A stretch of 61,953 nt of DNA, filler included. It is 9 parts of 9 records of this genome, joined end to end, with 100 filler letters (N's around TTAATTAATTAA, not from the genome) between each part and the next. Parts side by side here need not be neighbours in the genome. Positions count along the whole stretch, not along the records: positions 1 to 17,825 come from SRR11831585_380; 8 more parts are not named here. One strand, 5' to 3'. The position numbers and the translations under genes are program-made. Below the pieces are notes generated by a model. The model had not been told where the DNA came from. It saw only the letters and a program-made list of their open reading frames with translations, and did no database searches. Positions 1 to 54,697 of this stretch are shown here, in pieces (positions within the stretch are counted from its first letter, which is position 1; each line of letters starts with the position of its first letter).

Positions 1-150
1 CCAGAGCGGAGAAGACAGACACACACGCACACAAGTACACAATTAGGGCATTCACTCGCACTCATACTAACATATGTGGGACCACACAGCCATTCGATCA
101 CCTCCACACAGTGATAGCACAGCTGGTATTCATTCAACGACCGTACGTAC

Positions 151-3100
151 TTAGCGGGAGCTTGCGCACGAGGCGGGTTTGGAATCCTACACCAAAATCA
201 GCATCAACTCCCCACAATCACTTCAACCAAATCGTTGTGAAACACACTCCCGCAGCGTACGATCGAAACGTGCCCTGACCCGACGGCTGCCCGCGCGCTA
301 GTGCTGGTGCCGATGCTGCCTTCTGAGGGGACGGTCGATGTTCTCGCTCGTGATCTCCCGTAGTCCTCTCGGGCACCCCACTGCCCCGGTCTATGGCGAA
401 CGATGAATGTGTAGGCTCAGAACGTCGAGCCTCCGAGCTGGCCAGGTTCGGCTGCTGTGGTGGAGGTGATTTGTGTCTTGCATCTGCGAATGCTGAAGGC
501 TGCACGGCGGACTGCTGCGTGCGGGAAGGAGCGGCGACTAGAGGCTCTCGTGCCTGCGGTGCGGGTTCTGTGTGTAGTGATGGTGTGTATGTTTGAATGG
601 TCGGTGGTTGCTCCATGTCCGCGATGCCTTGAGGGAGACGGTCTGAGATGATAGAGGGGGTTGGTGACATAGCCCTGCAGAGCATATATGCGTTAGAAAT
701 ACCGCAAACGACTGCTCCACCGTATATTGTTGTCCTATCAAACTAGACCACCTTTTGCGAACTGACACACATACGTAAACCAGTAAGGCCGTCTGTGGCC
801 ACGCATAAATAGACGCCGATGCACACCCAATAATACGTACCGGTGCGCGGACGGGCGCAACATCGCAGGCTGGTTCATGGTCATGTCCGTTATGCCAGGC
901 GGGACACGGTTGCTCACAAGAGACAGCATCGACACCGGCGAAGGAACCCTACCGCCAGCGTGAGTAACAAGAGAGAGAGAGAGATGAGAGATAATTGTCA
1001 GTGATTCGCGCGTTGGGCCGTACCGTAGCGTTGTTTGCGTAGTTATGGCCGGTGGTGGTGGTAGGGGGGTGGTTTGCATGTCGTCCAGCCCAGGAGGGGC
1101 GCGGTTAGACGTAAGCGATGTCAGAGAAATCATCGAGGTCGGGGATGCTCTACACAAGGCACCATGTAGGTGAGGAAAAAAAGAATCCGACAAGAAAACA
1201 GAACACATTGTTACGAGATGCGAGCGATGAATCAAGTTTACCACACGGAGTAGCGGTTCACAAGCTTTTAGCTGCGGTACCTTCGCTTGGGCACAGGTGA
1301 GTGCATCCGTGTCACCGCGGCTGAGTTGGGTTTACTAACACGGCGGAACGGGGAGGCTGCACGGAATGACGAGCCATCGCTTGGCCTATGCGCGTGGAAG
1401 CACACAATGAGTGAAGGTGAACAGAGGAAAAAAACTGGATTCTTGAGTACTTGAAAGTAGCACTACCAAACAGCATGTGCCACAAACAACACGAGCACAA
1501 CTGGTATTTAAAACGTACACGAAGTTTTCCTGCGGGCCGCCGTCCTGTGCAAGGCCCACGCCAGCGCCCACCAACTCACGTTGATCTGCCGCGTAGGCTC
1601 GGTCCCCTGGTTTGGTGGACGTAGAGGGGTTTACATGGGAACGAGGGGTGTCGGAGGCGGTGATGGGCTGTCGTTTGTGCGATGCAAACCTACACGCTCG
1701 GATGTCAGAAAGCAACAGAAAGATGGGAAAGGGAGAAGAAGGAACAAATAAAGTTGAGTCGTCATTACGAAGATGTATGCAACGAGAAAGAAGCAATATT
1801 GGAGGCACATGGTACCGTCGTGGTTTGTGCAGGAAGGCACTGCACTGTGTGCACTGTTTCTGATACTTGCTGCATTCCGAGCAGTAGACGCTGGCCGGAT
1901 TGTGTGAGTTGTCCTCACGCCAGCATCGGTCACAATCCTCCTGCGTACACACATGAGCCGTGATCCAGTGAACAGTGAATAAAATCAGACTGCACTCCGT
2001 ACATATGTTGCTTCCAAAGGAACCATGTACTTCGTCACAACATACCGTCACCACGTGTCGTGTCCCTGAGGCTGATTCTGTGGTGTCCCAGCCTGCTCGA
2101 GCGTCCTTTCGTACCATACTTTGTGTGACACGTTGAACTACACACACAGCAACAACATCAAGCCCACTGAGTGAGACGGCACAGAAAATACTTGATCATC
2201 TGGTAGCAAAAAGCCGTGCTGCTCAACACACATAATAGAACTATAACACATGCAACAACGCACCGGCAGATCGCAGTGTTCCCATGCTGTCGGAGGCTTT
2301 AGTGAGCTGCTTAACACGTTCACTGTGAGCACATCTGGCGCACACATATTCGTTGTCGTTCGTATCACCGAGAAGCGACGCCAGGGAGACAAGAGGTTGA
2401 GAGGAGCGTTTGTTACAGAGACCGCAGCGCTCGGGAATCTACACAGAGACATCACTCTGAGTTAATTGGTGCAGGAGACGTACAAACGTCATACATAGTT
2501 TTACAACACCATGAATATACGACTGCGAAGTAGTAACAGTGGTTGATAAGATCATAGCTGGAGGCGAGTACATACCGACACGGATGGTGTGTTCAGTTCA
2601 TCATCGTCTTCTTCTTCGTTGAAATCTTCATTGGCTGACAGTGTCAACTCAGCAGAGTGCATAGCTGCATATGCCGCCCGCTTGAATCGATAGCGCATCA
2701 CGCACACCACCAAGATGAATCCGAGCACGGTCAATATCAGTACGGGCAAGCCGACCGCGAGCCAGTAGTTCTACACAGTGTGAAGAAACGCAATTGTTAG
2801 ACAGTCATTAAGCATCTCTTTTACCAACAGGGATCAGCCAACACACACACACACACAAACAAACATAAACACACACACATACACAAATGGTTGGCCAATA
2901 CCACCGTATGAACGTCACATGGAGAACGTACTGTCTCGAAACGGTCAAACACTTCCGCATCCACAGTCGTAACAGCGCTCACAAACTGCCCTGCGCTGCG
3001 TGCCACAGCTTTCACCACCGTCGTCGAGTTGAGCACAATAGGCCCCACATATCGACAGGGTAACGCAGTGGTGCAGGGCGCTGAGAGGGGCAGACTGGTG

Positions 3101-6100
3101 GTCGACGCTGGGAACAGAGGTAGATGGGATGTGCCCAGTGTGTAGAGAATAGTGTCACCGGCGCTGCTGCTCTGTAGTGTGACGGTGGTACGGCCCACGT
3201 CGTAGGTGGTGGTGATAGTGGGTGCGGTAGCTCGCTACAATAACGTGAGTTAGGGAGAAATGATGCGGGGAGGCATAGCAGCATAGCACAGAGCAACGCA
3301 GCTTGTTCTGAAGGTGAGACAGGAAGGAGAGACTGCGCGACGTACCGGTTGTATAACGAATCGCATAATTTGAACAGAGCTGGGGACATGACCCGTTTCC
3401 ACAGCCCGCACATAGACTGTAACATCTGACAGGCCGAATGATGACAGCGGTATTGTGGGGCTTGTCACCGTTACGTAATCTGCACATTGTCCATGAATAT
3501 ACAAGCTGCGCACAACGCGCGTTGCCATTCATTCTGATCAACTACATGAATAACAACAACGCGTACCTGAATCCTGGACCACTGTGTTGTTGGGTTTGTA
3601 TGCAACCTGAATGCGTGAGTTCGCTGTCCCTGTTAGGTGCAGCGGTATGTGGGAGTCACGGCCCGCGAGATAAAAGGAACCGCTCACAGAAATGAATTGC
3701 TGTTGCTGTGATCCATCTACCACCACCAACGCAAAAGCGTGAGCGAATAAAATGCATCTGATCACCTGCAGCTACGAGCGATAGGTACGCTGGAAAACAT
3801 GTACTTCTGCTACAGACTACAGACGTACCACCTCGCGAAGCGAAGGCAGCTATGTTGATTACGACAGTGGACACCGCAGGCAGGGCAACATTGTACACGG
3901 CTGTCGTCTCCGGGCCCGCGAAGGAACCGGCCTTGAAGCAGCGCACTACACAGCAATACGATAAGAGCGTGATAATGCAAAAAAAAGATGTTCTGATATA
4001 CGCTCCGAGAAAACCGGATATTACCCTACGTCAACCACTGCCCGAGCCATAATTCAGCACAACATATGGGTTTGAGAAGGCACCGCTTTACACGAGTGTC
4101 AAGTTTGTAACAACGTATAGACACATACCTCTGAGGACGGTTGTAGTGAGCAGCACAATATTGCCACCCGCCACAGCAGTTGAGTATTGTGTGACGTTGC
4201 TGTTGTCTGTCGTGTAGCGCATGGTGATGTTCGGGTACAAATCAATGGGTGCAACGCGCACAGTCAACGGAGACGCATATCTGCGCAGATACGAAGTGAG
4301 TTATTACGAGGGATTCGTCATCAAAAGGTCATGTTTTGCTATTTACCCTTCCCCGCGCAGTTTTCACGACAATTACAGAATGAAGCAAGATGCACTGTAA
4401 ACAAGTCTATATAATATGTATGCACATACGATTGATTTCTCGGTGGGCTCATGGTGACGCCTGCAAGCGTAACTCGCACAGAGTAGTATCGCTGAGCCTC
4501 GGATGAGGGCGGTCTGTCTGCACCAGTAGCTATCGCACGAACTACACTCGTGAACATAGAGAGGGAAAATTAGGACAGCGACACGAAAAAAGTACAGGCA
4601 AACAGGGACACGCGCACTAGAAAACGATTCGATAAACTCCATACAAACGAATGACCTTGACTCGTACCAAGGAACGAGCTACTCGTGGCGTTTAATGTCA
4701 CTGGCGATGTGTAAACTGTGCCTTGCATTGGGTCAGAGCCATCAGTGGTGTATCTGAGACATCAAAGTAGTCGTAAGCTCCCTCGTTGCAACTTGGGCAA
4801 ACAATTTACCAAGCCACTCATAGCAACACATTCAGGACCAACCTCAAACACTCTCACGGGAGACAACCATACCGAATAACAACGGCACCACTGAGCAGGT
4901 CTGCGGAAGACACGCTCACGTTGAACGTGACAGAATCCGCATAAATACCGTCCACAGGATACACAACAGGTGTACCCACTCGCACGGGGGAGCTGTACAG
5001 AAGACAGCGACCATCCGGTGCGCGAGACAGTCTACTCACACCACGAAAGAATGAGCACACGATTCGTATAAAGAGAGAGAGAGAGAGTCAAACCATAACC
5101 TGTACAACACATTGCATACAAATTACACAGTACGTATCGTACCCGGGCAGGCATCCGCATGATGAATATCGTGTGCGCGGTGGTGTGCTGACTGTGCTGT
5201 TGGGAGGACATGAGGCGCATGCCACAGCGGACGCTGACTGCGTGTAGGACCGATCATCCATGATAGCCGCAGGGGCTTGTGCCGTGGGTTGTCCACTTGC
5301 CTAATGCACATATCATAGTTAGAATCAAGGGTACTCTATACAATGGATCAACTACCAGAACCCGGTACTCGTGGGTATTACGCTGATCAAAGCAGTATCG
5401 GATACGTAAACCAGAACCGGTATAGACCAATACCGGTGCGTATCCTTAGGTACGCACCTGTGTCAGGGAGTAATTTGACACGGCCAGCGCTCCAAGCTCC
5501 GTCACACTAAGAGATCCATTGGCAACGGGTACATTGCCTACATAGACACTGATGCGCGACACGCCCCGAGATGACAGAAACTGCGCGTTGTAGTTGAAGA
5601 TTGCAATGGATGAGATGTGTGTGGAGCGCCCTAGATCTAGTGTGACGCGAAAACGACCACTCTGTGCACTAGCAAACTGGAGTGCCGACTATCGGTCAAG
5701 GAGATAACACTACGAACACGCAATTCACTGACTTGCATTCACAGTCGGGACAAACAATAACCGAGTGACGATAACGAGCAATATGGGACACATGAATAGA
5801 AACGCGGAATGCTGAAAGGATATGATTAGGGTTGTTGCTGGTGGTGTCGCCATCAAACAATCGCTCACAGGAAGTTTGCGCGGTGCTGCTCCCATCCGAA
5901 GTACAGTTCACAATGGGCACCCTACAGCACACACAAACATTAACAGGCGCGAATCATCTATCGCAATAACACACATAAACTTGGACGGAGCGAATAGAGC
6001 GCCATCTGCGCGTAGGTAATGGTGTGCGTACAGTGACAGCAGGTTGTCATACACTTGCACCTCCAGAAGTCCTGTGGGCTGACTCGCACACGAGAAACAG

Positions 6101-9100
6101 TCGTTCGGGTGGACTAGCAGCGTGAGATAGCGCCCCTGCCACACCTACGTTCGCAAGACCACGTTCAGAGTTAGCGCGCCATCATCTAACACGACCAAAG
6201 TAGAAATTTCGTGTGACAGTAAAATATAGAGCTGGGTTGATATCATATCGCGTAAGAGCAAAAGAATAGAACCATTGACCGACTGTGACAGATGAGCAGG
6301 GTAAGTTGCGTACCTGAAACTGGTTCCAGCTACATTCACACGTGCAGTCATCGGTTCTCTTCATGCCTGCTGGGCAAGGGGCAACGAACAGGCCTCGGCC
6401 CGCACAAAACTCTGCACGAACGATATGATGAGAGCGATGCAACTCACTGGTTGTAACTATTCAAGTATCCATCTGAAACTCACTCATCTGAAACTAACTC
6501 ATTTCTGCGGTTCTTCGTACCTGTTGAGGACGTCGCTGCAATACACGTGCAATTTGTTGACGCTCGCTGAAATCCCGGTGCACATTGGGGTACGCAGGTT
6601 CCTAGATGCACCAAAATGACTTGTGAGTTAGTTTAACGGTCCTGTGGTTCCGGGAACTTGTGACGAAGCGGACAGGGAACCCAAAAGATCATACCGTTGC
6701 ACATCTCATCGAGTACGCCGTCGCACGCGTTCTGCACTGTATAACTTGTCTGATAGTAACCAAGCAAGCTGCTTGTAATGGCGGTGGGGTACATACGCAC
6801 TTCATCCACGGACGCGACCAGAAACGAGTTGTAATTGGTATCCTGCAGCAAATTATTCATAAAGGCCAGAGCACGCATGAAGCCATTGAAACATATATCG
6901 TGCACCGAGATTATCCCGCCATTGTATGGAGTGTACGGAAACGTACGTTTCGGCCACCCACGTAGACCAATTCTAGCGATCCCGCGTATGTGATAGTGCC
7001 CATATACACAGCTTGACCTGTGACACAGACACGTGCGCGGGGTGAGTCCGCAAGAAAAGAAACCACACACGCAAAGATTACAGTCAACCCAAGCCCATAT
7101 GTCCCAGAGATCACACACGCAAAAGCGTACCTGTCAGCTGACCATCCACCCAGAACTGCGTGACTCCGCTAGTCACCGTCACAGCAATGTGGTGCCACAG
7201 TGTGAGGTCCAGTGAAACGGGACTAGAGTACACGGTCCCTATGGAGCCTCGTGTGAATTGAACCGTGAGTGTGGTGTACGTGGTGACGATGCCCAGCGAC
7301 CAGAATGGATGCCTGTGCACAGAAATCAAGGTGAGTTCACACTGTATCACTGAACAAGCACTTCTCCGTTGTGTTAATATCAGGCACCTATGATGCACGT
7401 ACACGCCGATGATGGTAGCGTTTTGCGAAGTTGGACCTGCTCTGACCCATGCCTCCGCGGCAAAGTTCGACTGAGGCTGCAGCAGACGGCTGTCGGTTAC
7501 GTTGGCAGAAAAATACGATTGAAGAAGCTGTCTAGGGTTGCAGTTATTTGCGCCTCCCCCGGAAGTTGTGAAGCTCTGTAGATAGACATGTCAGTGAATA
7601 GCGCATTCAACAATCGTACCTGCAGTTGCGGGGGCAGCGGGATAGAAAAAGTACATGCAAAAAGATCGTTGTTATCTGCCGGTGAGTAAAACCCTATAGG
7701 GGCGTCCGGACACAAGTTACCCTATGCTTGCTGTTAGAAACACTTGACAAGAACGATGCATAAGGGATACACGAGGATGCGTGGACCAAAGAAGCTCACA
7801 TACCAATTTGTACTGATCCGCTTGTCTGCATAAAAATGGGCAATCTGGCGTTGTGACTGCAATCGTCGTGTACACAGATGTTGTGTCGTTTCCTGGCTTA
7901 TTGGTACTAAAACGCACGTTACTCAAAATGATCAACATGCACCAACCCTGCACACGCTGCACAAGAATGTATCACACTTTGGTGCATACCAAGTGAACAA
8001 GGAGGGATTCCCTGCTAGTGCATATTTGCCCACTGCTGCAGGCACACACACCGATCCGCCCAGCACATAGTATCCAGGAGTAGCACATGCCCAGGGACAG
8101 CTGTTGGAACCGTTCCCTGGCCCAATATACGTATCCAGAAGTTAAAGAGTTAACAGTCTTCAAATAAGTTTCGAATTTTTACGCACAAAACAAACGGTAT
8201 CAAAGATCAAAGAAAGAACAATGATAAGTGGATATATAGTGTGGAAGGGCGGAAACGCCAGCGGCGCGGTGGTACACGTATAACGAGCACAATCACCTGC
8301 GAGGGAGTAAAATCCCACCCCAACTGGGCTCACAACGCCATTGGCACAATAAAGATCGACACCACATGAGGACGCGGTGCAAGTCTGGAGCAGCGTTCGC
8401 GCAGCCCTGTGTGAGCTGACATCGGTGTTTAAGGCCAATGAGGTGGACCGAGTCTCGCCATACACAAGAACGGGCAAAGGCGGACTGGACTCGCTCAGCA
8501 GTCTGCGAGAGGCAGCAAATGTAAAGTTCGATCCTATTAAAATGATGTATCACCACAAGTAAGAACACGGCCTGTCACTTCCGCGTGTAGCATCGCCAGC
8601 GTACCTAAGGCTAGGACGAGGAAGCCGTCTGAAAGCTGAAATTTGGTTGGTGTTCTCAGATTGTCATAGGAGCCATTTCGAAAAACTCCTGTCGAAAGTG
8701 CAACCACCAATGGCAATCCAAAGGTGTCATTCGCTTGCGCTGCACAATAAAATAAGCAACCATGGGAAGTTGTACTCGATGAAGTCATTAACCAACCCAC
8801 AGTGGACCAGTACAACACACCTACCTGTGAACGAAGCCATCGTGTGCGTGTTCATGAGCAGCTCCAGCCCAGGCGTTTTTGCAAACAGCGTACGACACAT
8901 GTGAAACCCAGTCAGCCTCCCCGCCACCGTGCGATTGCTCTCAAACCGCTGCTCCGCCCACGCAAACTGCGCCAGTTTCACGTTCCAGCAGTTCCGTAAC
9001 AGATCGAAGGGTAGGGCGCTGACAGCACTCTGATACGCACTGTGCAGCGTGCGTGCTCTTGCGAGTCCGCTCAGTATGGTGTGATATACAGCGTTCTGTA

Positions 9101-11151
9101 TGTTGAAGCTGTATGAGGTTGTGAGTGTGGGGGAGACGCAGCGGCTCTCAATGGTTCCTGTCAAAGGTTTCATACCGCTATGTGTGAGCACATTGTGCAG
9201 CAAATACGCGAACACGTTCGAATAAGACCTGGGTATACTTGCTCTTCAGAGCAGATGAACAGAAATACAGTCTGACAGACTTGACTAGTACACGGATAAC
9301 ACGCACACAAGCATACCTGGAATGGCGCACTTGAGCGTGTAATAGATCATGGTCTGCCGCCACAGGTCTACGTACAGTCCGTGCAGCGCAAGCACGCTGG
9401 TGGACAGAGACAGAAAATGTGCCGCATCCTCATACTCTCTAACGCACACGGTGTTTTTAGTACGTCACGTGGAACTATGCACACATGATAATGATGGTGC
9501 TAACAAGTAGAAGCAATGCTTTGAGGTTGTTGTGCACACTCAATATACGGGAGAGTACGCGACGGACGACATACCGCTGAATTGCTTCGAAACTTGTGTT
9601 GGTGACCGAATGAAACGGAAACAGACCCGTCAACACAGTGGAGCCTTGGAACCACGATATCGAGTCAGCCTATGTTGCGACACATAGTCAGTGTGGTGTG
9701 GGGGCTTTGCTGTGCACTCAATACATTCTCACACAAATCACAGAAAGCATGACCGGCTGTTGGTGTAGTGTGTCACATTGCAGAACATACCTCAAGTAAC
9801 GGTAGCTGCAGGCTGATCAAAGCGATCTCTGTCTCGTTCAGAAGTACATCTGCACATACACAACGAACGCTCCGCATGAGACCACCACATATTCGCAGAG
9901 GTCACAGTTTCACTAGGCGCCTTATCCCACTGACAGTACATGTGACGCACCGATGTTGCTGCTGCGCTGTGCAAGGAGAGCGAGTGCGTCCCGTGTGCGG
10001 TTCAGTCGCTGTATGCGGTCTGACAGTATACTCTGTGCGGTGGAGGGCGATACGGAGACGACGGGGGCGAGTCGAGACTGCGAGGACAGAATACACAGGT
10101 TAGAGAGAGAGATAGAGACAAACACTGAGCCTAGACGCGGGAAACTACCACAAGAGGTACGGAACACGAACAACGAGCTTGATTTGCGAAAGCACAATAG
10201 TCACAGTCAAAATCTGAGACGACATACGGGTAGACCCAGGGTCGACTCACGCAGCCACTCCTCACTGCGCTGCACGGCTTGCACCACATTACGATACAGC
10301 AGCCACATCCGCTCCAGTATTCTTCTTGCTGCATCCGCTAGAACAGGCGCACGCACACTGCCTACCTGAACTGAGGCCCCAAACGCACCGCTAAGAGCCC
10401 CACGGTCCGCTGTCAAGGTTTCGCCGCTCCAGTCCCGTATGTTGTCGCGAAGCTGATCATAAAGGGTCTGCAGATTCCGTATGCTGCGCCATGCGTGAAG
10501 ATCCGTGAGCGCATGGCTGGCCCGCTGTGCGTCGGCGCTGAGAAGGGCGGGGGCCGGTCTTTGCAGGAAGCTGAATGAGGTTCCGCTCAGATCGTGCCAG
10601 GATGACGCGGTGGGGTTGCAGTTGTAGGTGAAGGCTTGGCACGGAAACGGGTCGAAGATGGAGCTGTTGAAGGACGCAGGGGCGGAAACTGCGCGCGAAG
10701 AAACCGCATGAGTTGCTCATGTAACAAATTTTGTGACGTACCATAGCATTGTGAGTTCCATGAATATAATGGACTTGTGTTTCCATTGGTATTCTCCCCA
10801 CTGATGACTGTTGCTGCGCTCTCGATGAACTGAATGGATGGGCGGTTCATGAGAAACGGAGCAGTCTGACACAAGATGGAGCCATTGATGACACGCAGTC
10901 TTCCCATGAGCAAGGGCCCGGGTATTACTTGAAAGGCGGTCGCCACATGACCTGCACACAAGTTACGAATTACTTGGGTACCACCTCGTGCGGAACATAC
11001 CAGCAAGCTCCAAATGCTGTAACGATGTATTGGCCAGAGCGCACGTCCCTATATGGTGTGTCAGAAAAGCGCGCAACTTGATTCTTTCAAGATGCGTACA
11101 CAAAAAAGCGCAATGCGCTAGTACAAGATATATTATACACCCAAAACGCAT
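151..11151 (-). CDS. Giant multi-exon (about 43 exons) type-I membrane protein: signal peptide, unannotated N-terminal region, Cys-rich repeats, LamG/ConA-like, F5/8-like, CHB_HEX_C/Fn3-associated-like repeats, TM, CxxC..CxxC, B-box, low-complexity tail; 3' end probably runs off the window
   Basis: Manual splicing gives one phase-consistent frame from ATG 11151 (MRFGCIIYLVLAHCAFLWTCALA, signal-peptide-like). It passes FAAEAWVR..WHHIAVTV..FWVDG..VDEVRMY (LamG, ~6700-7450), LFDGD..LDLG..IAIFNYN..RGVSRI (F5/8-like, ~5460-5920), IRYTTDGSDP and MRYTTDNS (~2930-4990), TM WLAVGLPVLILTVLGFILVVCVM-RYRFKR (exon 2576-2770) and CDRC..VYCSEC..CTQC..LH..H (1660-1940). The model needs two AT-AC introns. Confidence 0.75.
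5682..5823 (-). other. U12-type (minor spliceosome) AT-AC intron, 142 nt, phase 1
   Basis: 5' end ATATCCTTT, branch point TCCTTGAC (5702-5695), AC 3' end 14 nt after the branch A. Removal joins NNPN to LQFASAQSGRFRVTLDLG in frame. Confidence 0.9.
8131..8235 (-). other. U12-type AT-AC intron, 105 nt, phase 2
   Basis: 5' end ATATCCACTT, branch-like TCTTTAAC, AC 3' end. The segment holds in-frame TGA and TAA with no AG between the TAA and the resumed coding frame. Removal restores CTTAPLAFPPFHTMYIGPGNGSNSCPWAC, which matches the neighbouring Cys repeat. Confidence 0.82.
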
Positions 11152-11445: not shown

Positions 11446-13686
11446 ATGGCAAATCTAGATATTACCAGCCCGCAATCTGCAGCTGTAATACCTGATCCAC
11501 CACAAGTACAATTGCCCGAATTTCGATCGTTTGGGAGATGTCGAAGTTTAGACGAATTTGATCGTCTCAACGTTATCGGAGAGGGAACTTACGGAGTTGT
11601 TTGTATGCTACTTGTTACGGAGTAATGCTGTAGATGATATTTACGATGTTTCGCACAGATCGCGCACAAGATAAGGCCACGAAGCAGGTGGTCGCGCTAA
11701 AGAAAGTGCGCATGGAGCGTGAAAAAGAAGGAGTACCGCTGACCGCGTTGAGGGAAATTAAATTATTGCGGTCATTGGATCACGAAAACATCGTCAGGTT
11801 ATTGGACATCGCGGTTGGGACCGATCCCCAAAACAGGTTCGTCTTCTTGCTCCTAACGCATTATTGCGCTGGTTATGATCTTTCCGTGCATTTGAGGTTC
11901 CCGTCTGTCCCATTTTGTTTGTGTTGTGATTGCGTGCCTCACAGATGCGTTCGTGTGTGCAGTTTGTATTTAGTGTTTGAGTATTGCGAGCACGACCTGG
12001 CGTCGTTGCTGGAGAACATGAAGAGTCCCTTTACTGAGTCTCAGGTCAAGTGCTTGCTGCGTCAGTTGCTCAAAGCGGTCCTGTTCTTGCACGATAGCTG
12101 GATTATTCACAGGTATGCAAGCGTATTTTTGGGCGTACGTGTGACGCATGAGTGCATGTTGCTTGTGCACAACTCTGTCAACGTGTTGATCGGCGTCATT
12201 CGTTTCCTTGTGTGCTGCATTCTTTCCCCTACTCTTACATGTGTGCGTTTCTCTGTCCGTCTCTGTCTGTTCTTCTCTAGGGATCTCAAAATGTCCAATC
12301 TGCTGTTCACCAACCGGGGTGTGTTGAAACTCTGTGATTTCGGACTCGCACGATCGTTTGGTCAGAAGATCCGACCGTATACGCCGCGTGTTGTAACGCT
12401 ATGGTACCGGGCGCCTGAGCTGTTGCTAGGCGATGCCAAGTACACACCGGCTATCGATATGTGGTATGTGTGTCCCTAAGATATCTCTTCGCATTTGTGT
12501 TTGTGCGTGTCCCTGTGTGTATATGTATGTGTGCGATGTGTATGTTATGCATGTGTGTATTGGCTGTAGCCCCCCCCCCCCTCCTCCTTACTATCTCTCA
12601 TTTCTCACGCCCTAACACCCTCACAGGTCCATGGGCTGTATCTTTGGTGAGCTGCTTCAACACAAGCCGCTCCTCCCCGGCCGCACCGATGCACAGCAAC
12701 TCGAGTACATATGCCGGCTGCTGGGGACCCCCAATGAGAAGGTCTGGCCGGGATTCTCACGGCTGCCGAACGTGGAGAAGTTTGCTCTGCCCCATGTTTC
12801 GTACGCGCTGTCTGTGTGTCTGTGTGTTGTGTTGTGGTTGTTGTTGTCGTCGTTGTTGTTGTTTGGCAGACGGGCGGCTGTGTGTTATAGTGATATGCTG
12901 TGGTGCGCTGGGGATTTGTATTTTTATGTCTATTGATATGCTTGTATTGTTGGGTATGTGTGTGTCGAATTGTGCGTTATTTACTTATGTGTTTGCTGCG
13001 TAGGAGCTCCATGCTACGGTCCAAGTTCCCCAAATTGTCTGACAAAGGAGTGGATTTGATGCTGCAGTTCATGCGATACGATCCGGAACGCAGAATATCT
13101 GCTGCGGACGGTATGTTGCTGTGTTGTGTCTCTGTGCATTATGTGTGTGTTTCATGTTGATCTCGCTGCATGTGCTGCGATCCGCTATAATTGTCGCCTT
13201 AGAGTATTATTAGGGGTGTGTGTATATTGTGTATAAGTGTGTATGTGTGTGTGTGTGCACTCATGTCTCGGGTCCACACACACAGCTCTGCGGCATCCCT
13301 ATTTTGACGAGTCCCCGCTGCCCTGCGCCCCTGAGTTTATGCCCACCTTCCCCTCTCTGCACGACCACAACTCAACCAAGTACGCTTTCTTTGTTGTTGT
13401 TGTTCTTGTTGTTTTTGTTTTTGTTCTTGTTGTTGTTGTTGTTGTTAGTGTCAATGCGCGCTGTTGTTGCCTTTTTGTGCGTGGGGACATGCGCTCCAAT
13501 GTGTTGGTTTGTATCGCTGTGTGTATTCCTCCGTGTGTGTTGGCCCGGGTACAAAAGATTCCAACTTAGCATAACGCTTACTCCGTGTGTATGATGTGCG
13601 TTTGCAGCCGAAGGAAAAGGAAATCACAATCGCCTCTGGACCGGCCGCATGTTCGCAGTGGTGATGAAATCCGGTCAGAACTTTGA
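11446..13686 (+). CDS. CDK10: Cyclin-dependent kinase 10 (8 exons: 11446-11602, 11659-11836, 11963-12112, 12281-12463, 12627-12800, 13004-13110, 13286-13379, 13608-13686)
   Basis: [90 protein letters not shown] and PLPCAPEFMPTFP match CDK10-type motifs. All introns are GT-AG. Confidence 0.9.
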
Positions 13687-14502
13687 CTCTTTCCGATGTT
13701 GTGTGGTTTTTTGTCACGGCCGCCTCCCGGTGTCGTCTATCTCTTTCATCTCTCATGCCTGCGGACTGTTTGATCAGTGACTGTCGTATTTATGCACTGA
13801 AGCACCGATGCAGTTGTTGTGATCATTCTTTGGTGTATCGAAAGCACAAGAATGTAGGTGTGTTGACGCTCTGTGAACCCTGAGACGGAACGTGTTGCGC
13901 GCGAGATCATGTGTTTCTGTATTTCGATGACTCTCTCTTCTCTCTGAACTTGTTACTGGAAGGTTGTGAGAAACACCGAACGAGTGTATAGTTGTGTGTC
14001 TGTGCGTGCGGTGGGTTTGGTCACTGAGGCGCAGCAGGCGATGTAAACTCAGGGATTCTAAAGTGTGTGTGAACGAATGACAACCCTCACCGGTATCTTC
14101 TCACACCGCACACATACCTTTGCAACGAAGGGGCCAGTAATGCAACATATTCATTCTATTATATTAACATATATTATAAATAACAGCCCGCGAGTCTAAT
14201 AAGCCGCAGACGGCTCGTCTCATGTTACAAATGCATCATCATTTCACGATTAACATATACCGATTACATCGCAGCCAGGAACAACAAACAACCCTCGGTC
14301 GATACGAAACACAGAACGTCTCCTAATGTCGCTCCGCTACGTATGTGCGGCAACCACGATCTCTCACGCGCCTGGGGGTGCATCTACATGCATGTTGATA
14401 TACGAATTGAAATGTGACGAGTGCCGTGTGATGTGTTTCACTTGTTCCGTTCCAGCCAGGTCGGACAAAGCGGCGGTCCGGCATTTAGCAGTATTGTCGA
14501 TT

Positions 14503-17500
14503 TCATAACGCGGAGACAGATGTAACGCCCAGAATGAGAAGCAACAGAAACACGGCCCCCATGCTATGTCCCCCTGCACACGCGCGAACGCACACCAACA
14601 CACAACATCAGTCAGTGTGAACGTGCATACGTGAATCACATCAGAACGGCATCGCGAGAGACACAGACGAGACCCGTACGACAATAAATTCCGCGTGAGA
14701 ACCACTCCAGTATTTATATGTGAAACGGAAAACACAGCTGTATCGGAATTATGTCACATACCCGACGACGCAACACCATTGGTTCGCGTGACCGGAGTCG
14801 TATACTGGAACCCGTTGACAAGGGTCGCAGTCCTTGAGCTGCCGTTCACAGCTGCGTCCGTGTACTGCACAGTGGACAAAGGTGAGAAGACACACATATA
14901 CACATACACACGCACACTCTCATACGCGCACACGCGACTACGAGCAACAAAGAATATTACAAACGTGTGAGGTCACAGACGAGGCTGACTCTACGTACGT
15001 CGAAAGAAACACTTAAACACACTCGCACACAAACACGTAAGCACATACAGTAACGGTGTAGAATCCCACCGAAGCGCGTGGGGGCAGAGTGCACGTGACC
15101 TGTGTTCCGTTGGCGACAACCACGGGTGTCTGACAAAGAAAGGGTCCGATGTCCACCGTAACTGACGCAGACACAAAGTTGCCACCTGTGCATAATGTTA
15201 CACGAGAGAGTGAGTCGTAGGGGGCGAACACACTAACGACACAACAAAGTGTAAGCGCATCGCTAAACCAGCCTGTCACTGCACGGCTCCATTTAATAAC
15301 ATGTCCGCAGTGGTTAGCGTATACAACGCACACATACCGCTCAGTGTTATCAGCGATCCGGATGTGGTTCCGGCAGCGGACGGCGTTACAGTTTGTATGT
15401 AAGGATACCTGCGGGATCGAAAACAAGGTAATCAGCGACCGCATAGCCACAGGCAAAGCAAAACCAAGCTCGAACCACCTCCACAAAATCCACACATACA
15501 AGGGATGGATGATCCCTGAACGTACGAAGGATCGTATCCAAAGACACCCGCTCCCTGTATCACACCCTGCGGCACTCGTACGGCCGCCTCCAGGGCACCG
15601 CTTGCTGTGGCAGATCCGTACGATCCAGTCACACAGCGAATCTCTGTGTCAGAAACGGATACGGCGCTATTGCAAGGAATGGTGCCGATGGTAACGGATG
15701 ACAGCTGTGTGAATCCGGACCCTGTTGAGTCGTAGGCGGGTAAGTGACGAGAAACGGGAAACCCGAGCACAATAGGGCACACGGTGAAAGGGGGAGGGGT
15801 TGAGGGGAGAGGAACAGAGACCACACAAACTATCATACACTGGGTACGGTGCAACACGACATCGACACACACAGCCGCCCACGCAGTCCATGCGATAAGA
15901 TCGGGAACAGGAGGGGAGGGGGGGGGGTTGGACATTCTCTGACCAACGCACCCACACATGCCACCACATGCGATCATGTACACACATCATCCACACACTA
16001 CGCTACGCACCTAGGAGAGTCACCAGGGTACCGCCGAGATGGGTCCCAACCGCCGGCGTTACAGACACCACCTTGCCTGTCAGGCCTGATATGCAGAGCT
16101 GTTCGGCGTAGGGGCAGGTCAACACGCCTGTACAGCCACGGAAAAGTCAGAAGGGTGGGGCCATCACGCTGAGAAGGCATGGGCCTCACAACCAGTTATT
16201 GATACAGTGAACGCACACATGATGGGACGAGGGAGCGACACAAATGAACAAGCAGGATAACAGAGCACACATACACTGCGTGTGTCACGATATACGATGG
16301 AAATGAAACTGAATTATACACTTGCAATACCGTTGTATCCCGGGAACGACAACGGTCCGCCTGCAGCAGGGCAGATCTTCACCAGAGCTGAGCTGTCCGG
16401 CGGAGTCACAGTCACTTGAATCAAATTCTGCATACAGATACACAGACGCAGTAATAGTTAACAAAGTGTCCTGCTAAAATATCATACGTTCGCAACTGGA
16501 AACTAAGAACAGCTGCACGTATATATGAATCACACTCATCGTAAGTTGATATGGAAACATCAGACTGTCCTCGCAACAAACTCAGTAGCACACTTTATCA
16601 CACAATGCAGCACAACGTACCCCAGGCGTGCAGACCATCTTGAAGCAGCCCGAGTGACTGCTCACCGTCTGCTGACCGGTAGGACCTATTGCGCATCGAA
16701 CCAACAGTCGCGGAGAGTAAGTCATTGTCTTATGACTTTGCCCACACATTGCGTGACACGCGGACACACGCACACAAACATCTCAGAACAACACACATAC
16801 CAGCCTGTACGAGTGTGCTCATCATGCAGTGGGACGCGGTGCCATAGTGTTCCCCAAAGTCCGCCCCATAGGGCTGCGGCACATAGTTGGCAGGATCGTC
16901 GCAGTAACCTGCACACGAGAGTAGATGAAAACCACATTAAGATTAGGCCGTATGCTGAGAACACACGAAAGGTAACCGACACGACATTAACTGGGTCATG
17001 TTCAACGACGGTGCAGACACGCTCACGCTCGCCACTACGCCAGTCACACAGACACACTATATAATTCCGCAATCACAGCAGAAATAGCACACGCGTAGTG
17101 GTGCATTTCGTACCCTGATAGGCCGGGATGAAGGGAGTGCAGTAGTCCATGAGACTGTACGGGCCACCGTAGCGGGGATTGGAAAAATACTGAAAGTAAG
17201 CGGGCAGGTCGCTGACATACTCAAAGATAGGGCACAGGGCGCGGGCAGACAGATCGAACGTGCAACCCTAAACAGCGTTATACGTGAGCGAGTAAGCGTT
17301 ATGCGTTCAATGACAAAGACAGGCACACGATAGAGAGAGAGGGACACAGTCATATCCATCATGTAGTTGCGACACCGAGTCGATTCCCAAGCACACACAA
17401 CAGACGTGTGCGCTGTGTCACTGTCACAGAACCACGAAACAATCCGCACACACGCACGTACGTTTGCACTGGGCACGTTGCCACATACGTAGCCCGGCGA

Positions 17501-17825: not shown

Positions 17826-17925
17826 NNNNNNNNNNNNNNNNNNNNNNNNNNNNNNNNNNNNNNNNNNNNTTAATTAATTAANNNNNNNNNNNNNNNNNNN
17901 NNNNNNNNNNNNNNNNNNNNNNNNN
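17826..17925. other. Artificial contig-joining spacer (44 N + TTAATTAATTAA + 44 N)
   Basis: Identical 100-nt spacer occurs 8 times; the 12-mer gives stops in all six frames. Confidence 0.98.
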
Positions 17926-20685: not shown

Positions 20686-20785
20686 NNNNNNNNNNNNNNN
20701 NNNNNNNNNNNNNNNNNNNNNNNNNNNNNTTAATTAATTAANNNNNNNNNNNNNNNNNNNNNNNNNNNNNNNNNNNNNNNNNNNN
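20686..20785. other. Artificial spacer; eukaryote-to-E. coli boundary
   Basis: N44-TTAATTAATTAA-N44. Confidence 0.98.
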
Positions 20786-41425: not shown

Positions 41426-41525
41426 NNNNNNNNNNNNNNNNNNNNNNNNNNNNNNNNNNNNNNNNNNNNTTAATTAATTAANNNNNNNNNNNNNNNNNNN
41501 NNNNNNNNNNNNNNNNNNNNNNNNN
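41426..41525. other. Artificial spacer between two non-adjacent E. coli contigs
   Basis: N44-TTAATTAATTAA-N44. Confidence 0.98.
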
Positions 41526-41789
41526 AAAAACCAATATATTATCCTTAATTATCTATATATTTTCCTATTTTTCAGCGCAAACATTCATGTAATGAATAAT
41601 TATCACCACAAACCACCTCACCAGCACCTTATTATTCACATGATCGTAACTATAAAATTCATTAAATAAATACATCCCAGCAAGTTGGCTATTTCTGAAC
41701 GAGTTATTTATTTACATTCACAAACAGATATATATACTGCTTCAGCTTTTTATTTTAAAAAATAAATTTGTTATTAAGGATATGTTCAT

Positions 41790-42554
41790 ATGTTTTTCAA
41801 AAAGAACCTCACAACAGCTGCTATTTGTGCAGCACTTTCTGTTGCAGCATTCAGTGCCATGGCAACAGATTCAACTGATACAGAATTAACTATCATCGGC
41901 GAGTATACCCCTGGTGCATGTACCCCAGTTGTTACGGGCGGCGGCATTGTTGACTATGGGAAACATCATAACAGTGCGCTGAATCCGACCGGTAAAAGTA
42001 ATAAACTGGTTCAACTGGGCCGCAAAAACAGCACATTAAATATAACCTGCACAGCACCAACGCTAATTGCTGTAACCTCCAAGGATAACCGTCAGTCGAC
42101 CATTGTAGCGTTAAACGACACATCCTATATTGAAAAAGCTTATGATACTCTCGTAGATATGAAGGGAACGAAAAACGCCTTTGGTTTAGGTTCTGCGCCT
42201 AATGGACAAAAAATTGGCGCTGCATCCATTGGTATTGACAGGTCTAATGGTGGGATTCACGCGGCGGACGATACAGGTGAAATTCCTGTCGACCTGATTC
42301 AAACTGACCACTGGTCAGCAGCGACCCCCACATGGAAAGCCTCATCTAATGGCGCATTCTGCTCGCTGACAAGTTGCTCAGCAATCGAGCGCGGTTATTC
42401 TGTTGCAAAAACAGGGGAACTGACACCTGTTGCTATTACAGCGGTCACCTTCCCGTTACTGATTGATGCTGCGGTAAATGACAATACTATTCTTGGTTCT
42501 GATGAAACGATCAAACTGGATGGTAACGTCACTATCAGCGTTCAGTATTTATAA
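41790..42554 (+). CDS. gltF: DUF1120 periplasmic/fimbrial-like protein GltF
   Basis: 254 aa, MFFKKNLTTAAICAALS..GACTP..ISVQYL. Confidence 0.92.
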   Translation: MFFKKNLTTAAICAALSVAAFSAMATDSTDTELTIIGEYTPGACTPVVTGGGIVDYGKHHNSALNPTGKSNKLVQLGRKNSTLNITCTAPTLIAVTSKDNRQSTIVALNDTSYIEKAYDTLVDMKGTKNAFGLGSAPNGQKIGAASIGIDRSNGGIHAADDTGEIPVDLIQTDHWSAATPTWKASSNGAFCSLTSCSAIERGYSVAKTGELTPVAITAVTFPLLIDAAVNDNTILGSDETIKLDGNVTISVQYL

Positions 42555-42726
42555 GAACTTGTAATACAGTTTTTATTTTTACGTCATTAACCAGTTAGCT
42601 ATAACTCGGACAGATTATGCCCTATGACATGGTCTGTCTTAATCAATCTCATCGCAAACAGTGCATAACATATATTAACAATATGTTTCTGCGTTATTTA
42701 TCATTATTACAGGAGTTTTAATTTAA

Positions 42727-43401
42727 ATGCTCAGACACATTACATTCACTGTATTTATAACAACATCAATGAATACCTTAGCCACAGGGATGGTTCCTGA
42801 AACATCAGTATTGCTGGTTGATGAAAAGCGTGGTGAAGCTAGTATTAATATTAAGAATACAGATGATCATCCTTCATTGCTTTACACCACCATTGTTGAT
42901 TTGCCTGAAAGCAATAAATCAATTCGTTTAATCCCGACTCAGCCCGTTATTCGTGTTGAAGCCGGTCAAGTACAACAGGTTCGATTTTTACTTCAGGCGA
43001 CTGTTCCTCTGCAATCAGAAGAGCTGAAACGCGTAACGTTCGAAGGTATTCCACCAAAAGATGACAAGAGCAGCAGAGTTACTGTTTCAATTCGTCAGGA
43101 TCTACCTGTACTGATCCACCCGGCTTCCCTGCCGGAAGAGCGAGAGACCTGGAAATTCCTGGAATGGCGTAAAAATGGCGACCAAATTGAGATTAGCAAC
43201 CCCAGTAATTATGTCGTTCGTATGACCTTACAATTTAAAACGCTCCCTTCAGGAAAAACGGGGGCTATAAATAAGACCTATTTTCTACCACACACCAGTA
43301 CAACTACTGCATTAACAAACGCTACGGATACAAAAGTCGAGTTTTACCCAGCCAGCCGATATGGTTATCGCGGTAATAAATATGTCACTGACTTAAAATA
43401 A
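42727..43401 (+). CDS. yhcA: Fimbrial chaperone
   Basis: 224 aa, PapD-like (RVTFEGIPPK). Confidence 0.9.
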   Translation: MLRHITFTVFITTSMNTLATGMVPETSVLLVDEKRGEASINIKNTDDHPSLLYTTIVDLPESNKSIRLIPTQPVIRVEAGQVQQVRFLLQATVPLQSEELKRVTFEGIPPKDDKSSRVTVSIRQDLPVLIHPASLPEERETWKFLEWRKNGDQIEISNPSNYVVRMTLQFKTLPSGKTGAINKTYFLPHTSTTTALTNATDTKVEFYPASRYGYRGNKYVTDLK

Positions 43402-43421
43402 CTTTGCCTGGAGCGACAAGG

Positions 43422-45803
43422 ATGTTAAAAAAAACGTTACTGGCCTACACCATTGGTTTTGCCTTTTCTCCCCCAGCCAATGCAGATGGTATAGAGATTG
43501 CCGCTGTTGATTTTGATCGGGAAACATTAAAATCACTAGGTGTAGATCCTAATATATCGCATTATTTTTCCCGTTCAGCCCGTTTTTTGCCAGGTGAATA
43601 TTCACTGATAGTATCAGTAAATGGCGAAAAAAAAGGCAACATTGCTACGCGCTTTGATGAAAATGGCGACATTTGTCTTGATCAGGCATTTCTGCAACAA
43701 GCCGGTTTAAAAATTCCTTCTGAAGAAAAAAATGGCTGTTACGACTATATATTGTCCTACCCGGGTACCACAATCACACCATTACCTAACCAGGAAGCGT
43801 TAGATATTATCGTTTCACCACAGGCGATCATTCCCATAGGGTTGGATCTCACAAACGCAGCAACTGGTGGAACAGCTGCGCTGCTAAACTACTCTCTGAT
43901 GAGCAGCCGTGCAGAATTTTCTAATGGGAGTTCGGACTACTCCCAGGCTGCACTTGAAGGCGGGATTAATATTAATGACTGGATGTTACGCAGCCATCAG
44001 TTCCTTACACAAACAAATGGCACATTCAGTAACCAGAACTCGTCAACCTACCTTCAACGTACCTTTACAGATCTTAAAACACTCATGCGAGCAGGTGAAG
44101 TTAACCTCAATAATAGCGTGTTGGAAGGAGCCAGTATTTACGGTATCGAAATCGCACCGGACAACGCATTGCAAACCAGCGGCAGTGGTGTGCAAGTTAC
44201 TGGTATAGCCAACACCTCTCAGGCTCGTGTCGAGATTCGTCAACAAGGAGTTTTAATTCATTCCATTCTGGTTCCTGCGGGCGCATTCACTATCCCTGAT
44301 GTACCTGTTCGCAATGGTAATAGTGATCTTAATGTCACCGTTGTCGAAACAGACGGTAGTTCGCACAACTATATTGTTCCCTCCACCCTGTTTAATCAGC
44401 ATGTAGAAAGCTTCCAGGGTTATCGCTTCGCGATAGGGCGGGTAGACGATGACTATGACGAATCACCTTGGGTAATTAGTGCATCGAGCGGATGGAATCT
44501 GACACGCTGGAGTGCAATGAACGGCGGCGTTATCGTAGCAGAAAATTATCAGGCGGCATCAATCCGGTCGAGTCTGGTTCCCCTGCCCGATTTAACAGTG
44601 AGCAGCCAAATTAGTACATCGCAGGATACGAAAGACTCACTGCAAGGACAGAAATATCGTCTTGACGCGAACTACAATCTCCCATTTTCACTTGGGCTAA
44701 CAACCAGCCTCACTCGATCTGATCGCCATTATCGCGAACTGTCTGAAGCGATTGATGATGATTATACCGATCCGACTAAAAGCACTTATGCGCTTGGTTT
44801 AAACTGGTCTAACTCCATTCTGGGTGGTTTCAACATCAGTGGCTATAAAACATATAGTTACGACGGTGACAATGACTCAAGCAACCTTAATATTAACTGG
44901 AACAAAGCGTTCAAACACGCCACGGTTTCCGTCAACTGGCAGCATCAACTTAGTGCTTCAGAAAATAATGAAGACGATGGTGATCTGTTCTACGTCAACA
45001 TCAGTATTCCATTTGGCAGATCAAACACCGCCACACTGTATACTCGCCATGACGATCATAAAACCCACTATGGTACTGGTGTCATGGGAGTCGTCTCAGA
45101 TGAGATGTCCTACTATGTGAATGCTGAACGAGATCACGACGAACGTGAAACGAGCTTGAACGGCAGTATCAGTTCCAATCTCCATTACACCCAAGTCAGC
45201 CTTGCCGCAGGAGCAAGCGGCAGTGATAGCCGTACTTACAACGGTACGATGTCAGGTGGTATTGCCGTACATGATCAGGGAGTGACCTTTTCACCGTGGA
45301 CTATCAATGACACTTTCGCCATCGCAAAAATGGATAACAATATTGCAGGTGTCAGAATTACATCTCAGGCAGGCCCAGTATGGACAGATTTTCGGGGTAA
45401 TGCCGTCATTCCATCAATCCAGCCGTGGCGAACATCAGGAGTTGAGATCGATACCGCCAGCTTGCCAAAAAATGTCGATATCGGTAACGGCACAAAAATG
45501 ATCAAACAAGGCCGTGGTGCAGTAGGGAAAGTCGGATTCAGTGCGATAACACAACGCCGTGCATTACTCAATATCACACTTTCCGACGGCAAAAAACTGC
45601 CCAGAGGCGTTGCGATTGAAGATAGTGAAGGCAACTATCTGACAACATCAGTGGATGACGGTGTTGTATTCCTCAATAACATCAAACCGGACATGGTGCT
45701 AGATATAAAAGATGAGCAGCAATCATGCCGTATTCACCTTACATTCCCAGAAGATGCACCAAAAGATGTGTTCTATGAGACAGCAACAGGAGAGTGCCAA
45801 TGA
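43422..45803 (+). CDS. yhcD: Outer-membrane fimbrial usher
   Basis: 793 aa from MLKKTLLAY; FLPGEY and PAGAFTI usher motifs. Confidence 0.92.
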   Translation: MLKKTLLAYTIGFAFSPPANADGIEIAAVDFDRETLKSLGVDPNISHYFSRSARFLPGEYSLIVSVNGEKKGNIATRFDENGDICLDQAFLQQAGLKIPSEEKNGCYDYILSYPGTTITPLPNQEALDIIVSPQAIIPIGLDLTNAATGGTAALLNYSLMSSRAEFSNGSSDYSQAALEGGININDWMLRSHQFLTQTNGTFSNQNSSTYLQRTFTDLKTLMRAGEVNLNNSVLEGASIYGIEIAPDNALQTSGSGVQVTGIANTSQARVEIRQQGVLIHSILVPAGAFTIPDVPVRNGNSDLNVTVVETDGSSHNYIVPSTLFNQHVESFQGYRFAIGRVDDDYDESPWVISASSGWNLTRWSAMNGGVIVAENYQAASIRSSLVPLPDLTVSSQISTSQDTKDSLQGQKYRLDANYNLPFSLGLTTSLTRSDRHYRELSEAIDDDYTDPTKSTYALGLNWSNSILGGFNISGYKTYSYDGDNDSSNLNINWNKAFKHATVSVNWQHQLSASENNEDDGDLFYVNISIPFGRSNTATLYTRHDDHKTHYGTGVMGVVSDEMSYYVNAERDHDERETSLNGSISSNLHYTQVSLAAGASGSDSRTYNGTMSGGIAVHDQGVTFSPWTINDTFAIAKMDNNIAGVRITSQAGPVWTDFRGNAVIPSIQPWRTSGVEIDTASLPKNVDIGNGTKMIKQGRGAVGKVGFSAITQRRALLNITLSDGKKLPRGVAIEDSEGNYLTTSVDDGVVFLNNIKPDMVLDIKDEQQSCRIHLTFPEDAPKDVFYETATGECQ

Positions 45804-46170
45804 AACGGATAATAACAGGATGCCTGCTGCTGAACTTCGCCATGGCCGCTCAGGCAGAGTGTAATATCTCCAGTAGCATACAAAATATCGACTATGGCAA
45901 ACGAAGTGCTGCCATGCGCCAAGTTGACCGGGGTAAAACAACACAATTAGCAGACAGAACAATCACGCTGGTAATGCAATGCGATCAGGACGCTCATATT
46001 CGTGTTCAGTTGAATACCGCTAATATTTCCAACAACGGATTTGGATTTGGCCCGAATGGTTCATTAAATCTGATCGCCAGCGATGCATTTTCAGGTAGTA
46101 ACAATCTCGACCTGGCGTTAGCCAGTGGCAAAAATGACAATCCGGGCAGCACAGGAACAGCATCAATTAG
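45800..46170 (+). pseudogene. yhcE: yhcE N-terminal fragment, interrupted by IS5
   Basis: MKRIITGCLLLNFAMAAQAEC..; ends at TTAG followed by GGAAG and the contig break. Confidence 0.8.
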
Positions 46171-46175
46171 GGAAG
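46167..46175 (+). mobile_element. IS5 junction: YTAR target (TTAG) plus first 5 nt of IS5 end (GGAAG)
   Basis: Only 5 nt of the element are visible; the call relies on the known yhcE::IS5 insertion in K-12 and on the contig ending here. Confidence 0.65.
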
Positions 46176-46275
46176 NNNNNNNNNNNNNNNNNNNNNNNNN
46201 NNNNNNNNNNNNNNNNNNNTTAATTAATTAANNNNNNNNNNNNNNNNNNNNNNNNNNNNNNNNNNNNNNNNNNNN
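46176..46275. other. Artificial spacer; E. coli-to-eukaryote boundary
   Basis: N44-TTAATTAATTAA-N44. Confidence 0.98.
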
Positions 46276-54674: not shown

Positions 54675-54697
54675 CACACACACACACACACACACAC

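Follow-up and report, generated by a model that had tools for sequence, protein, structure and literature searches.

Positions 218-11151 of a 61,953-base stretch of DNA (the window in the following, at its full length) carry fragmentary stop-to-stop open reading frames (ORFs), raising the question whether these belong to one gene and, if so, what kind of protein it encodes. The first-pass annotation of this DNA, made from the letters alone, had proposed a giant single-pass receptor-like protein with an unfamiliar set of domains and had noted that the ORF track shows the gene only in pieces, in agreement with the longest unspliced open stretch across the region spanning 269 amino acids (aa). 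On balance we lean towards one intron-dense nuclear gene of a microbial eukaryote that encodes a type I membrane glycoprotein of ~2,160 residues, which would act as a surface adhesion or glycan receptor with a signalling tail.

The gene model was curated by hand, by reading the three minus-strand frames and their splice signals over positions 11400 to 1. It starts with an ATG at 11151, ends with a stop codon at 220-218 and joins 40 exons into a coding sequence of 6,480 nucleotides (nt), i.e. 2,160 aa, without internal stops. All 39 introns are of the GT..AG type and 49-183 nt long, the spacing between successive coding exons is at most 183 nt and the frame is kept at every junction. The donors follow the consensus G|GTAYG (G at -1 in 30/39, A at +3 in 33/39, C or T at +4 in 37/39 and G at +5 in 36/39) and each of the 39 acceptors has C or T at -3. 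As to base composition on the sense strand, introns are rich in T (34% T vs. 20.5% A) and exons are rich in C (30% C). An enrichment of GTAYG is confined to the minus strand, where 51 sites were counted as compared to 29 on the plus strand (block shuffles gave 21.2 +/- 4.4, with a maximum of 35), and 30 of these 51 sites are exon ends of the model. Moreover, in a leave-one-exon-out codon likelihood test the annotated frame was the best of three in 35 of the 40 exons. For a second gene within the locus there is neither room nor signal. The earlier proposal of a single spliced frame thus holds, with the number of exons being 40 in the manual model instead of ~43; of the extent originally assigned, 151-11151, the start is retained, whereas the end moves to the stop codon, and the gene can now be placed on the minus strand, which had not been specified.

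The predicted protein consists of a signal peptide, an N-terminal region, a Cys-rich region, Laminin_G_3, a second Cys-rich region, a galactose-binding-like domain, a third Cys-rich region, four repeats, a transmembrane (TM) helix and a tail, in this order, as listed here for the gene as a whole and then from the N- to the C-terminus:

218-11151, minus strand: whole gene, 40 exons, 39 introns, 2,160 codons plus stop
11086-11151, minus strand: start codon and signal peptide, aa 1-22
8388-11085, minus strand: N-terminal ectodomain region without assignable domain, aa 23-640, exons 1-10
7620-8387, minus strand: Cys-rich region A, aa 641-781, exons 10-13; C..C..G.[YF] spacing of the ephrin-receptor-like/GCC2_GCC3 kind, pattern only
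6600-7527, minus strand: Laminin_G_3 (ConA-like lectin), aa 782-957, exons 14-17; Pfam PF13385
6314-6599, minus strand: Cys-rich region B, aa 958-1016, exons 18-19; EGF/TNFR-like spacing
5458-6144, minus strand: exon 20 linker and putative galactose-binding-like domain (weak), aa 1017-1186, exons 20-22
5028-5300, minus strand: linker and Cys-rich region C, aa 1187-1240, exon 23; sub-threshold Ephrin_rec_like
2932-5027, minus strand: four CHB_HEX_C/Fn3_assoc-like repeats, aa 1241-1643, exons 24-31
2696-2764, minus strand: single TM helix, aa 1646-1668
2594-2632, minus strand: juxtamembrane acidic cluster with a run of seven D/E, read from the sequence
1668-2426, minus strand: zinc-binding-type modules with five CxxC pairs; CxxC-x24-CxxC-x-H in exon 33, B-box-like C2-C2-C2-H-H in exon 35
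596-1282, minus strand: three tail repeats, S/P-rich ... PPG[IL]xDM, exons 38, 39 and 40
70-186, minus strand: possible further exon, with a strong donor at 261 and an acceptor at 186

A signal peptide and a single TM helix had both been predicted for this protein, and both are evident as hydropathy peaks, one at aa 1 (1.74) and one at aa 1646-1668 (maximum over 19 residues 2.9). The latter is the sole strong internal hydrophobic segment, the only other internal window above 1.6 being a weak peak of 1.65 at aa 1424, within the third repeat, and it is directly followed by the basic stretch RYRFKR. The ectodomain of about 1,620 residues contains 29 NxS/T sequons as compared to a shuffle mean of 14.9, and none of 2,000 shuffles reached 29, whereas the tail of 492 residues contains 0 sequons vs. 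2.7 expected (P=0.045). This asymmetry supports an N-out, C-in topology and, at the same time, a genuine coding frame. The protein thus combines a signal peptide, one TM helix, a positive charge on the inner side and sequons exclusively N-terminal of the TM helix, as type I membrane glycoproteins do. For both the gene structure and the topology the support is good.

The N-terminal part of the ectodomain is without a counterpart, and the several hundred unrecognised residues announced by the first-pass annotation indeed have no relatives in Pfam, the PDB or the metagenomes searched. On the N-terminal exons Pfam yielded chance-level matches only, up to E=10, and no glycosidase family. A PDB sequence search gave nothing for exon 3 and, for exon 8, only an alignment of 20 residues with designed repeat proteins, in which no stretch passed. 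Exon 8 has no relatives among the proteins of 236-2,000 aa in a set of 5.8 billion, scans of metagenome contigs with exons 3 and 8 retrieved none either, and the ESM Atlas held no usable match for exon 8. For exon 3 the Atlas returned leads below 0.9 only (0.86-0.88), in clusters that carry the helical domains of GH20C, GH84 and NAGLU, a result that we take as a lead to an all-helical nature and not as homology. AlphaFold2 models calculated without an alignment contain long helices for exon 3 and exon 8, at low confidence (predicted local distance difference test scores of 51 and 35, respectively). Judged from such models, the N-terminal region of ~620 residues is probably alpha-helical.

For the remaining modules profile searches were run per exon or per read-through ORF, which lowers their power, as whole modules span junctions. 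Laminin_G_3 (PF13385) nevertheless passes its cut-off (1.5e-7, 32.1 bits vs. 27.6, ORF 7114-7590), and spliced aa 790-950 are collinear with single LamG_3 copies, with 31 of 103 BLASTP high-scoring segment pairs crossing all three exon junctions; the LamG domain named at the outset is therefore present. The Cys-rich regions are defined by their spacing. Exons 10-13 have no Pfam match at E<=1, region B gave chance-level matches only (TNFR_nem 0.044, GBP_PSP 0.012), and exon 23 matches Ephrin_rec_like (PF07699) below the cut-off (0.034, 14.4 bits vs. 23.1). Hence, of the suggested GCC2/GCC3-like modules the spacing pattern persists, but the Pfam threshold is missed even by this best match. The putative galactose-binding-like domain, which is spread over two exons with differing frames, shows a similar picture, since exon 22 matches DUF4457 (4.2e-4, 20.1 bits vs. 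26.7) and F5_F8_type_C_2 (0.08, 14.0 bits vs. 27.8) below the respective cut-offs, and a PDB sequence search with this exon found nothing.

Three or four CHB_HEX_C/Fn3-associated-like repeats had been expected ahead of the TM helix. Four were found, two of them above Pfam cut-offs: exon 25 (Fn3_assoc, PF13287, 29.1 bits; CHB_HEX_C_1, PF13290, 24.3 bits) and the ORF 2824-3234, which holds exon 31 (Fn3_assoc/CHB_HEX_C_1, 27.8 and 26.5 bits). The CHB_HEX_C_1 match of exon 27 stays below the cut-off (E=0.02). Leave-one-out hidden Markov models weakly recover the organisation in four repeats; a jackhmmer search seeded with repeat 4 by itself failed to retrieve the other three. Taken as a whole, the earlier list of modules is right in order and kind, with two kinds being firm (Laminin_G_3 and Fn3_assoc) and the others staying at the level of resemblance at which they had been proposed.

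In the tail, 10 of the 11 cysteines are arranged in five CxxC pairs. Exon 35 matches ANCHR-like_BBOX (PF22586; 0.0048, 17.4 bits vs. 27) and zf-B_box (PF00643; 0.56) below the cut-offs, exon 33 matches DUF7836 below the cut-off (0.015), and PDB sequence searches yielded nothing for exon 35 and zinc-finger noise only, at E>=0.03, for exon 33. The claim of zinc-binding modules behind the TM helix is thus backed by the five CxxC pairs and an eight-ligand pattern, but not by a profile match above the cut-off. Each of the three tail repeats begins at the first base of its exon (38, 39 and 40) and in the same phase, which is a signature of exon duplication.

Next, the protein has to be compared to its relatives and to known architectures. 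An exhaustive representative search with the LamG ORF returned 95 proteins at E<=0.001, the best one scoring 91 bits, with identities of 26-55%. None of the 95 matches at E<=1e-30 and none is an orthologue, none has a region in common with the receptor outside aa 738-994, and longer homologues of the LamG ORF are lacking among the proteins of up to 2,000 aa that were searched. Of these relatives two were scanned, both being giants with multiple LamG_3 domains and one also containing RTX repeats, and the named proteins in the top ten matches are from an actinobacterial metagenome-assembled genome and a Pacearchaeota archaeon or are called 'hypothetical protein' (one case). The LamG module looks prokaryote-like by these matches, though it is now split by three introns. 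Accordingly, prokaryotic tandem Laminin_G_3 giants (P0001, P0002 and others) are the nearest sequence relatives of the receptor's LamG, and a presumed role in binding external polymers is common to both. These giants are, however, uninterrupted ORFs with many LamG copies, whereas the receptor has a single LamG with three introns and the eukaryotic layout of signal peptide, TM helix and tail. Stalk repeats of the CHB_HEX_C/Fn3_assoc type are typical of bacterial surface proteins; in a control scan PF13290 was present in 3 of 14 named prokaryotic genomes.

In the parts of the literature on mosaic receptor architectures that were available nothing came closer to the receptor than the animal Caspr/CNTNAP proteins, and no protein described there has its architecture. 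Caspr/CNTNAP and neurexin IV have an N-terminal discoidin domain, four LamG domains, EGF and fibrinogen-like modules and a 4.1/PDZ-binding tail. Animal Caspr/CNTNAP/neurexin IV are single-pass proteins that unite discoidin, LamG and EGF modules (PMC5997682, PMC13152795). Like these proteins, the receptor is a type I single-pass protein with a discoidin-like domain, LamG and Cys-rich modules, and would have a role in adhesion or recognition. In contrast to the four Laminin_G_2 domains of Caspr/CNTNAP the receptor has one Laminin_G_3, which precedes the discoidin-like domain, and its N-terminal region of 620 residues, the four CHB_HEX_C/Fn3_assoc repeats and the zinc-finger tail are absent from Caspr/CNTNAP. 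No fibrinogen or EGF Pfam match was found in the receptor's exons or ORFs, so it does not belong to Caspr/CNTNAP, and no sequence relationship to these proteins was detected beyond the domain superfamilies.

Other eukaryotic families share single features with the receptor. It resembles type I proteins with Ephrin_rec_like (GCC2_GCC3) repeats in its topology and in the C..C..G.[YF]-type spacing of three stretches, but differs from them in having just one sub-threshold Pfam match (0.034). Exon 35 shares the C2-C2-C2-H-H ligand pattern and a weak profile match with B-box zinc fingers (TRIM-type; ANCHR-like B-box PF22586), yet, unlike in TRIM-type proteins, this unit is located in the tail of a membrane receptor and has neither RING nor coiled-coil neighbours. 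Apicomplexan cysteine-repeat modular proteins combine GCC2_GCC3-like repeats with a multi-pass membrane region; membership in this group was ruled out, as the receptor has one strong internal TM-like segment only. The statement that this combination of domains is not known from any named family is therefore sustained by tests that were made exon by exon, given that 0 of the 95 LamG relatives match elsewhere and that the N-terminal exons are without relatives.

Because a Laminin_G_3 domain, a weak galactose-binding-like domain and four Ig-like repeats are present, it is reasonable to regard the protein as an adhesion or glycan-binding receptor, probably a lineage-specific one and not a new kind of system. 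As a mosaic, lectin/adhesion-type single-pass receptor it is of a known kind, the orphan N-terminal region being the new part. Its ligand, signalling step and cellular role are what we infer, as follows. Ligand binding might fall to the lectin-like beta-sandwiches together with the distal helical region; the ligand would be external, most likely a glycan, and presented by a substrate, by a partner cell or by food. The Cys-rich regions and the Ig-like repeats would serve as spacer or stalk that holds the binding modules off the membrane. The tail may then couple ligand occupancy or clustering to cytoplasmic partners, candidates for this coupling being the run of acidic residues, the two zinc modules (a ribbon and a B-box-like unit) and the three duplicated, proline-rich docking-like motifs. 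The glycan-sensing adhesion receptor of the first-pass annotation fits such lectin-like and stalk modules on a type I glycoprotein, but its prey-recognition part found no support.

Several points weigh against a surface adhesion receptor encoded by exactly this gene model. All 39 junctions are predictions from genomic sequence, and as no orthologue was found conservation cannot back either model or function. The frame test was failed by exons 1, 12, 18, 33 and 35, all of them short, and near-equal alternative junctions exist at exons 7 (alternative end 9376 vs. 9307 in the model), 10/11, 21/22 and 22/23, each changing the protein by about +/-10-25 aa. Two tail introns of 105 and 126 nt, which keep the frame and hold no stop, could be retained in the transcript. 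Moreover, the true 3' end, and with it the C-terminus, may lie outside the window: a splice from the donor at 261, which is one of the unused GTAYG sites, to the acceptor at 186 would swap the last 16 codons for a frame that is open to window base 1, and bases 1-70 resemble a TG-rich intron. As to function, the ephrin-receptor-like, galactose-binding-like and B-box-like assignments are all below Pfam cut-offs, lectin-type folds are no proof of glycan binding, and the juxtamembrane acidic cluster would equally suit an intracellular sorting receptor.

Indeed, an endomembrane sorting or cargo receptor of the Golgi, endosome or lysosome/phagosome, the lumenal lectin-like modules of which would bind glycosylated cargo and the acidic cluster of which would be a trafficking signal, might have the same type I topology and the same lectin-like lumenal modules as a receptor at the surface. 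The run of seven D/E residues is found ~27 residues past the TM helix, with Ser/Thr nearby, and one YxxPhi-type motif is located 9 residues past the helix. However, the tail contains neither an acidic-dileucine motif nor NPxY, Pfam searches per exon and ORF did not find MRH, VPS10 or other known cargo-receptor domains, and an ectodomain as long as 1,620 residues, heavily glycosylated and set on a stalk of four repeats, is, by general knowledge, more typical of surface proteins, which leaves a sorting function unlikely. Quite unlikely, in our estimate, is a more far-reaching option, namely that the N-terminal ~620 residues are a new ligand-binding fold and that the protein founds an undescribed class of receptors, e.g. 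one that recognises particles or prey and sets off their uptake. In such a class bacterial-type lectin and stalk modules, long resident and split by introns, would have been wired via the TM helix to a B-box-like module and duplicated docking motifs. Another option, a membrane-anchored glycan-processing enzyme or its relic, is suggested by bacterial surface glycosidases, which carry CBM32, LamG or Ig-like modules downstream of their catalytic module and helical accessory domain. The N-terminal region would then be a diverged glycoside-hydrolase-associated module, in line with the proximity of the exon 3 Atlas features to the helical-domain clusters mentioned above, and according to the family descriptions LamG_3, galactose-binding-like and CHB_HEX_C modules accompany such enzymes in prokaryotes. 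Yet all Atlas scores are below the lead level of 0.9, with ~128 of 256 features in common where true members usually have 170 or more, neither Pfam at E<=10 nor the PDB links the N-terminal exons to a glycosidase, and the ~120 residues ahead of exon 3 are too few for a TIM-barrel catalytic domain, so that an enzymatic origin appears very improbable.

Other explanations concern the gene itself. Two or more adjacent genes, e.g. one for a secreted N-terminal helical protein and one for a LamG/CHB_HEX_C membrane protein, might have been joined falsely, as no homologue ties the N-terminal 640 residues to the rest, the junctions were predicted from the genomic sequence only and the genome is a compact one in which only 295 nt separate the gene from its divergent neighbour. 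Furthermore, 10 of the 39 introns can be read through without meeting a stop in frame, hence some boundaries are soft. On the other hand, consensus sites keep all 39 junctions in one frame over gaps of at most 183 nt, there is no strong signal-like hydrophobic segment between signal peptide and TM helix (the weak peak at aa 1424 is the only one above 1.6), the codon statistics hold evenly over its whole length (35 of 40 exons) and the sequons are enriched across the entire ectodomain. We thus judge a false join to be improbable. A decaying or non-expressed gene, or an artefact of a low-quality, contaminated assembly, would be in keeping with a stretch that chains short contigs, including E. 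coli sequence of the laboratory type, but we see hardly any chance for it: a frame of 2,160 codons that is open over 39 introns, the asymmetry of the sequons and the consensus splice sites argue for selection, and the gene is located inside one gap-free contig piece (1-17825).

Some candidates that arose while the model was built were rejected. An automatic gene finder based on dynamic programming gave 40, 126 or 32 exons, depending on the parameters, its self-training diverged and its codon table was partly trained on bacterial sequence; it was replaced by manual reading. A small exon at 2522-2484 was ruled out because of the introns that it would create, 53 and 45 nt in length, and exon 1320-841 of the first automatic model was discarded because no in-frame donor fits the phase of the acceptor at 1149. 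At the 5' end, a further in-frame ATG is found upstream of the modelled start, at 11346.

Many protists rely on large mosaic surface proteins to recognise their substrates, mates, hosts or food, and for very few of these proteins the ligands are known. In the surface receptor that we favour, lectin and stalk modules of the prokaryotic type are combined with a zinc-finger tail of the eukaryotic type and a long stretch that has no relatives. Provided that it is expressed, it would offer a tractable way into surface recognition in a lineage not yet sampled, and would exemplify bacterial-type adhesin modules that have been fully domesticated into an intron-dense eukaryotic gene. It would be of interest mainly if transcripts confirmed the model and the N-terminal region proved to be a new binding fold. 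At present its value is modest, as it is a single predicted gene model from a contaminated, fragmented assembly and lineage-specific mosaics are common.

The window as a whole is a chain of contigs and not a single segment of a chromosome, and the order of its pieces is biologically meaningless. The pieces are separated by eight identical spacers, each consisting of 44 N, the 12-base linker TTAATTAATTAA, which has a stop in all frames, and another 44 N:

17826-17925: spacer
20686-20785: spacer
41426-41525: spacer
46176-46275: spacer
51820-51919: spacer
54575-54674: spacer
56920-57019: spacer
59361-59460: spacer

The pieces 20786-41425 and 41526-46175 are bacterial, with long uninterrupted ORFs that we read as restriction, chemotaxis, replication-primosome and fimbrial genes. 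They match genome G001 at 95-100%, and 41526-46175, which covers gltF-yhcA-yhcD-yhcE, is 100% identical to laboratory strains of E. coli. These pieces are contamination of the cloning-host type within a eukaryotic assembly, and since G001 matches the bacterial pieces only, it is no kin of the eukaryotic contig; that G001 contains no match to the locus DNA, to exons 3, 31 and 33 or to PF13290 is therefore uninformative on paralogues. The other eukaryotic pieces contain an amidohydrolase fragment (54675-55423, minus strand, 2.9e-7), a C2H2 zinc finger below the cut-off (57264-57782, minus strand, 1.9e-4) and a fragment of a GT41 (O-GlcNAc-transferase-type) gene (60225-60737, minus strand, 5e-13).

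The receptor gene lies entirely within the first piece and has two neighbours there. An intron-containing gene for a CDK10-like protein kinase (about 11446-13000, plus strand; Pkinase 5.5e-39) is divergent from it, the 295 nt given above being the distance from the receptor ATG to the kinase ATG at about 11446. Among the matches listed for this kinase, identities are 32-48% and the sequences come from scattered eukaryotes and transcriptomes. At 15013-15986 on the minus strand, ORF fragments that weakly match IPT/TIG (E=0.0078, 16.6 bits vs. a cut-off of 20.9) may represent a second multi-exon gene for a surface protein on the same contig. Finally, the AT skew of the plus strand flips with the direction of transcription, being about +0.1 across the receptor gene on the minus strand and -0.34 at 12001-14000, where the kinase gene lies on the plus strand.

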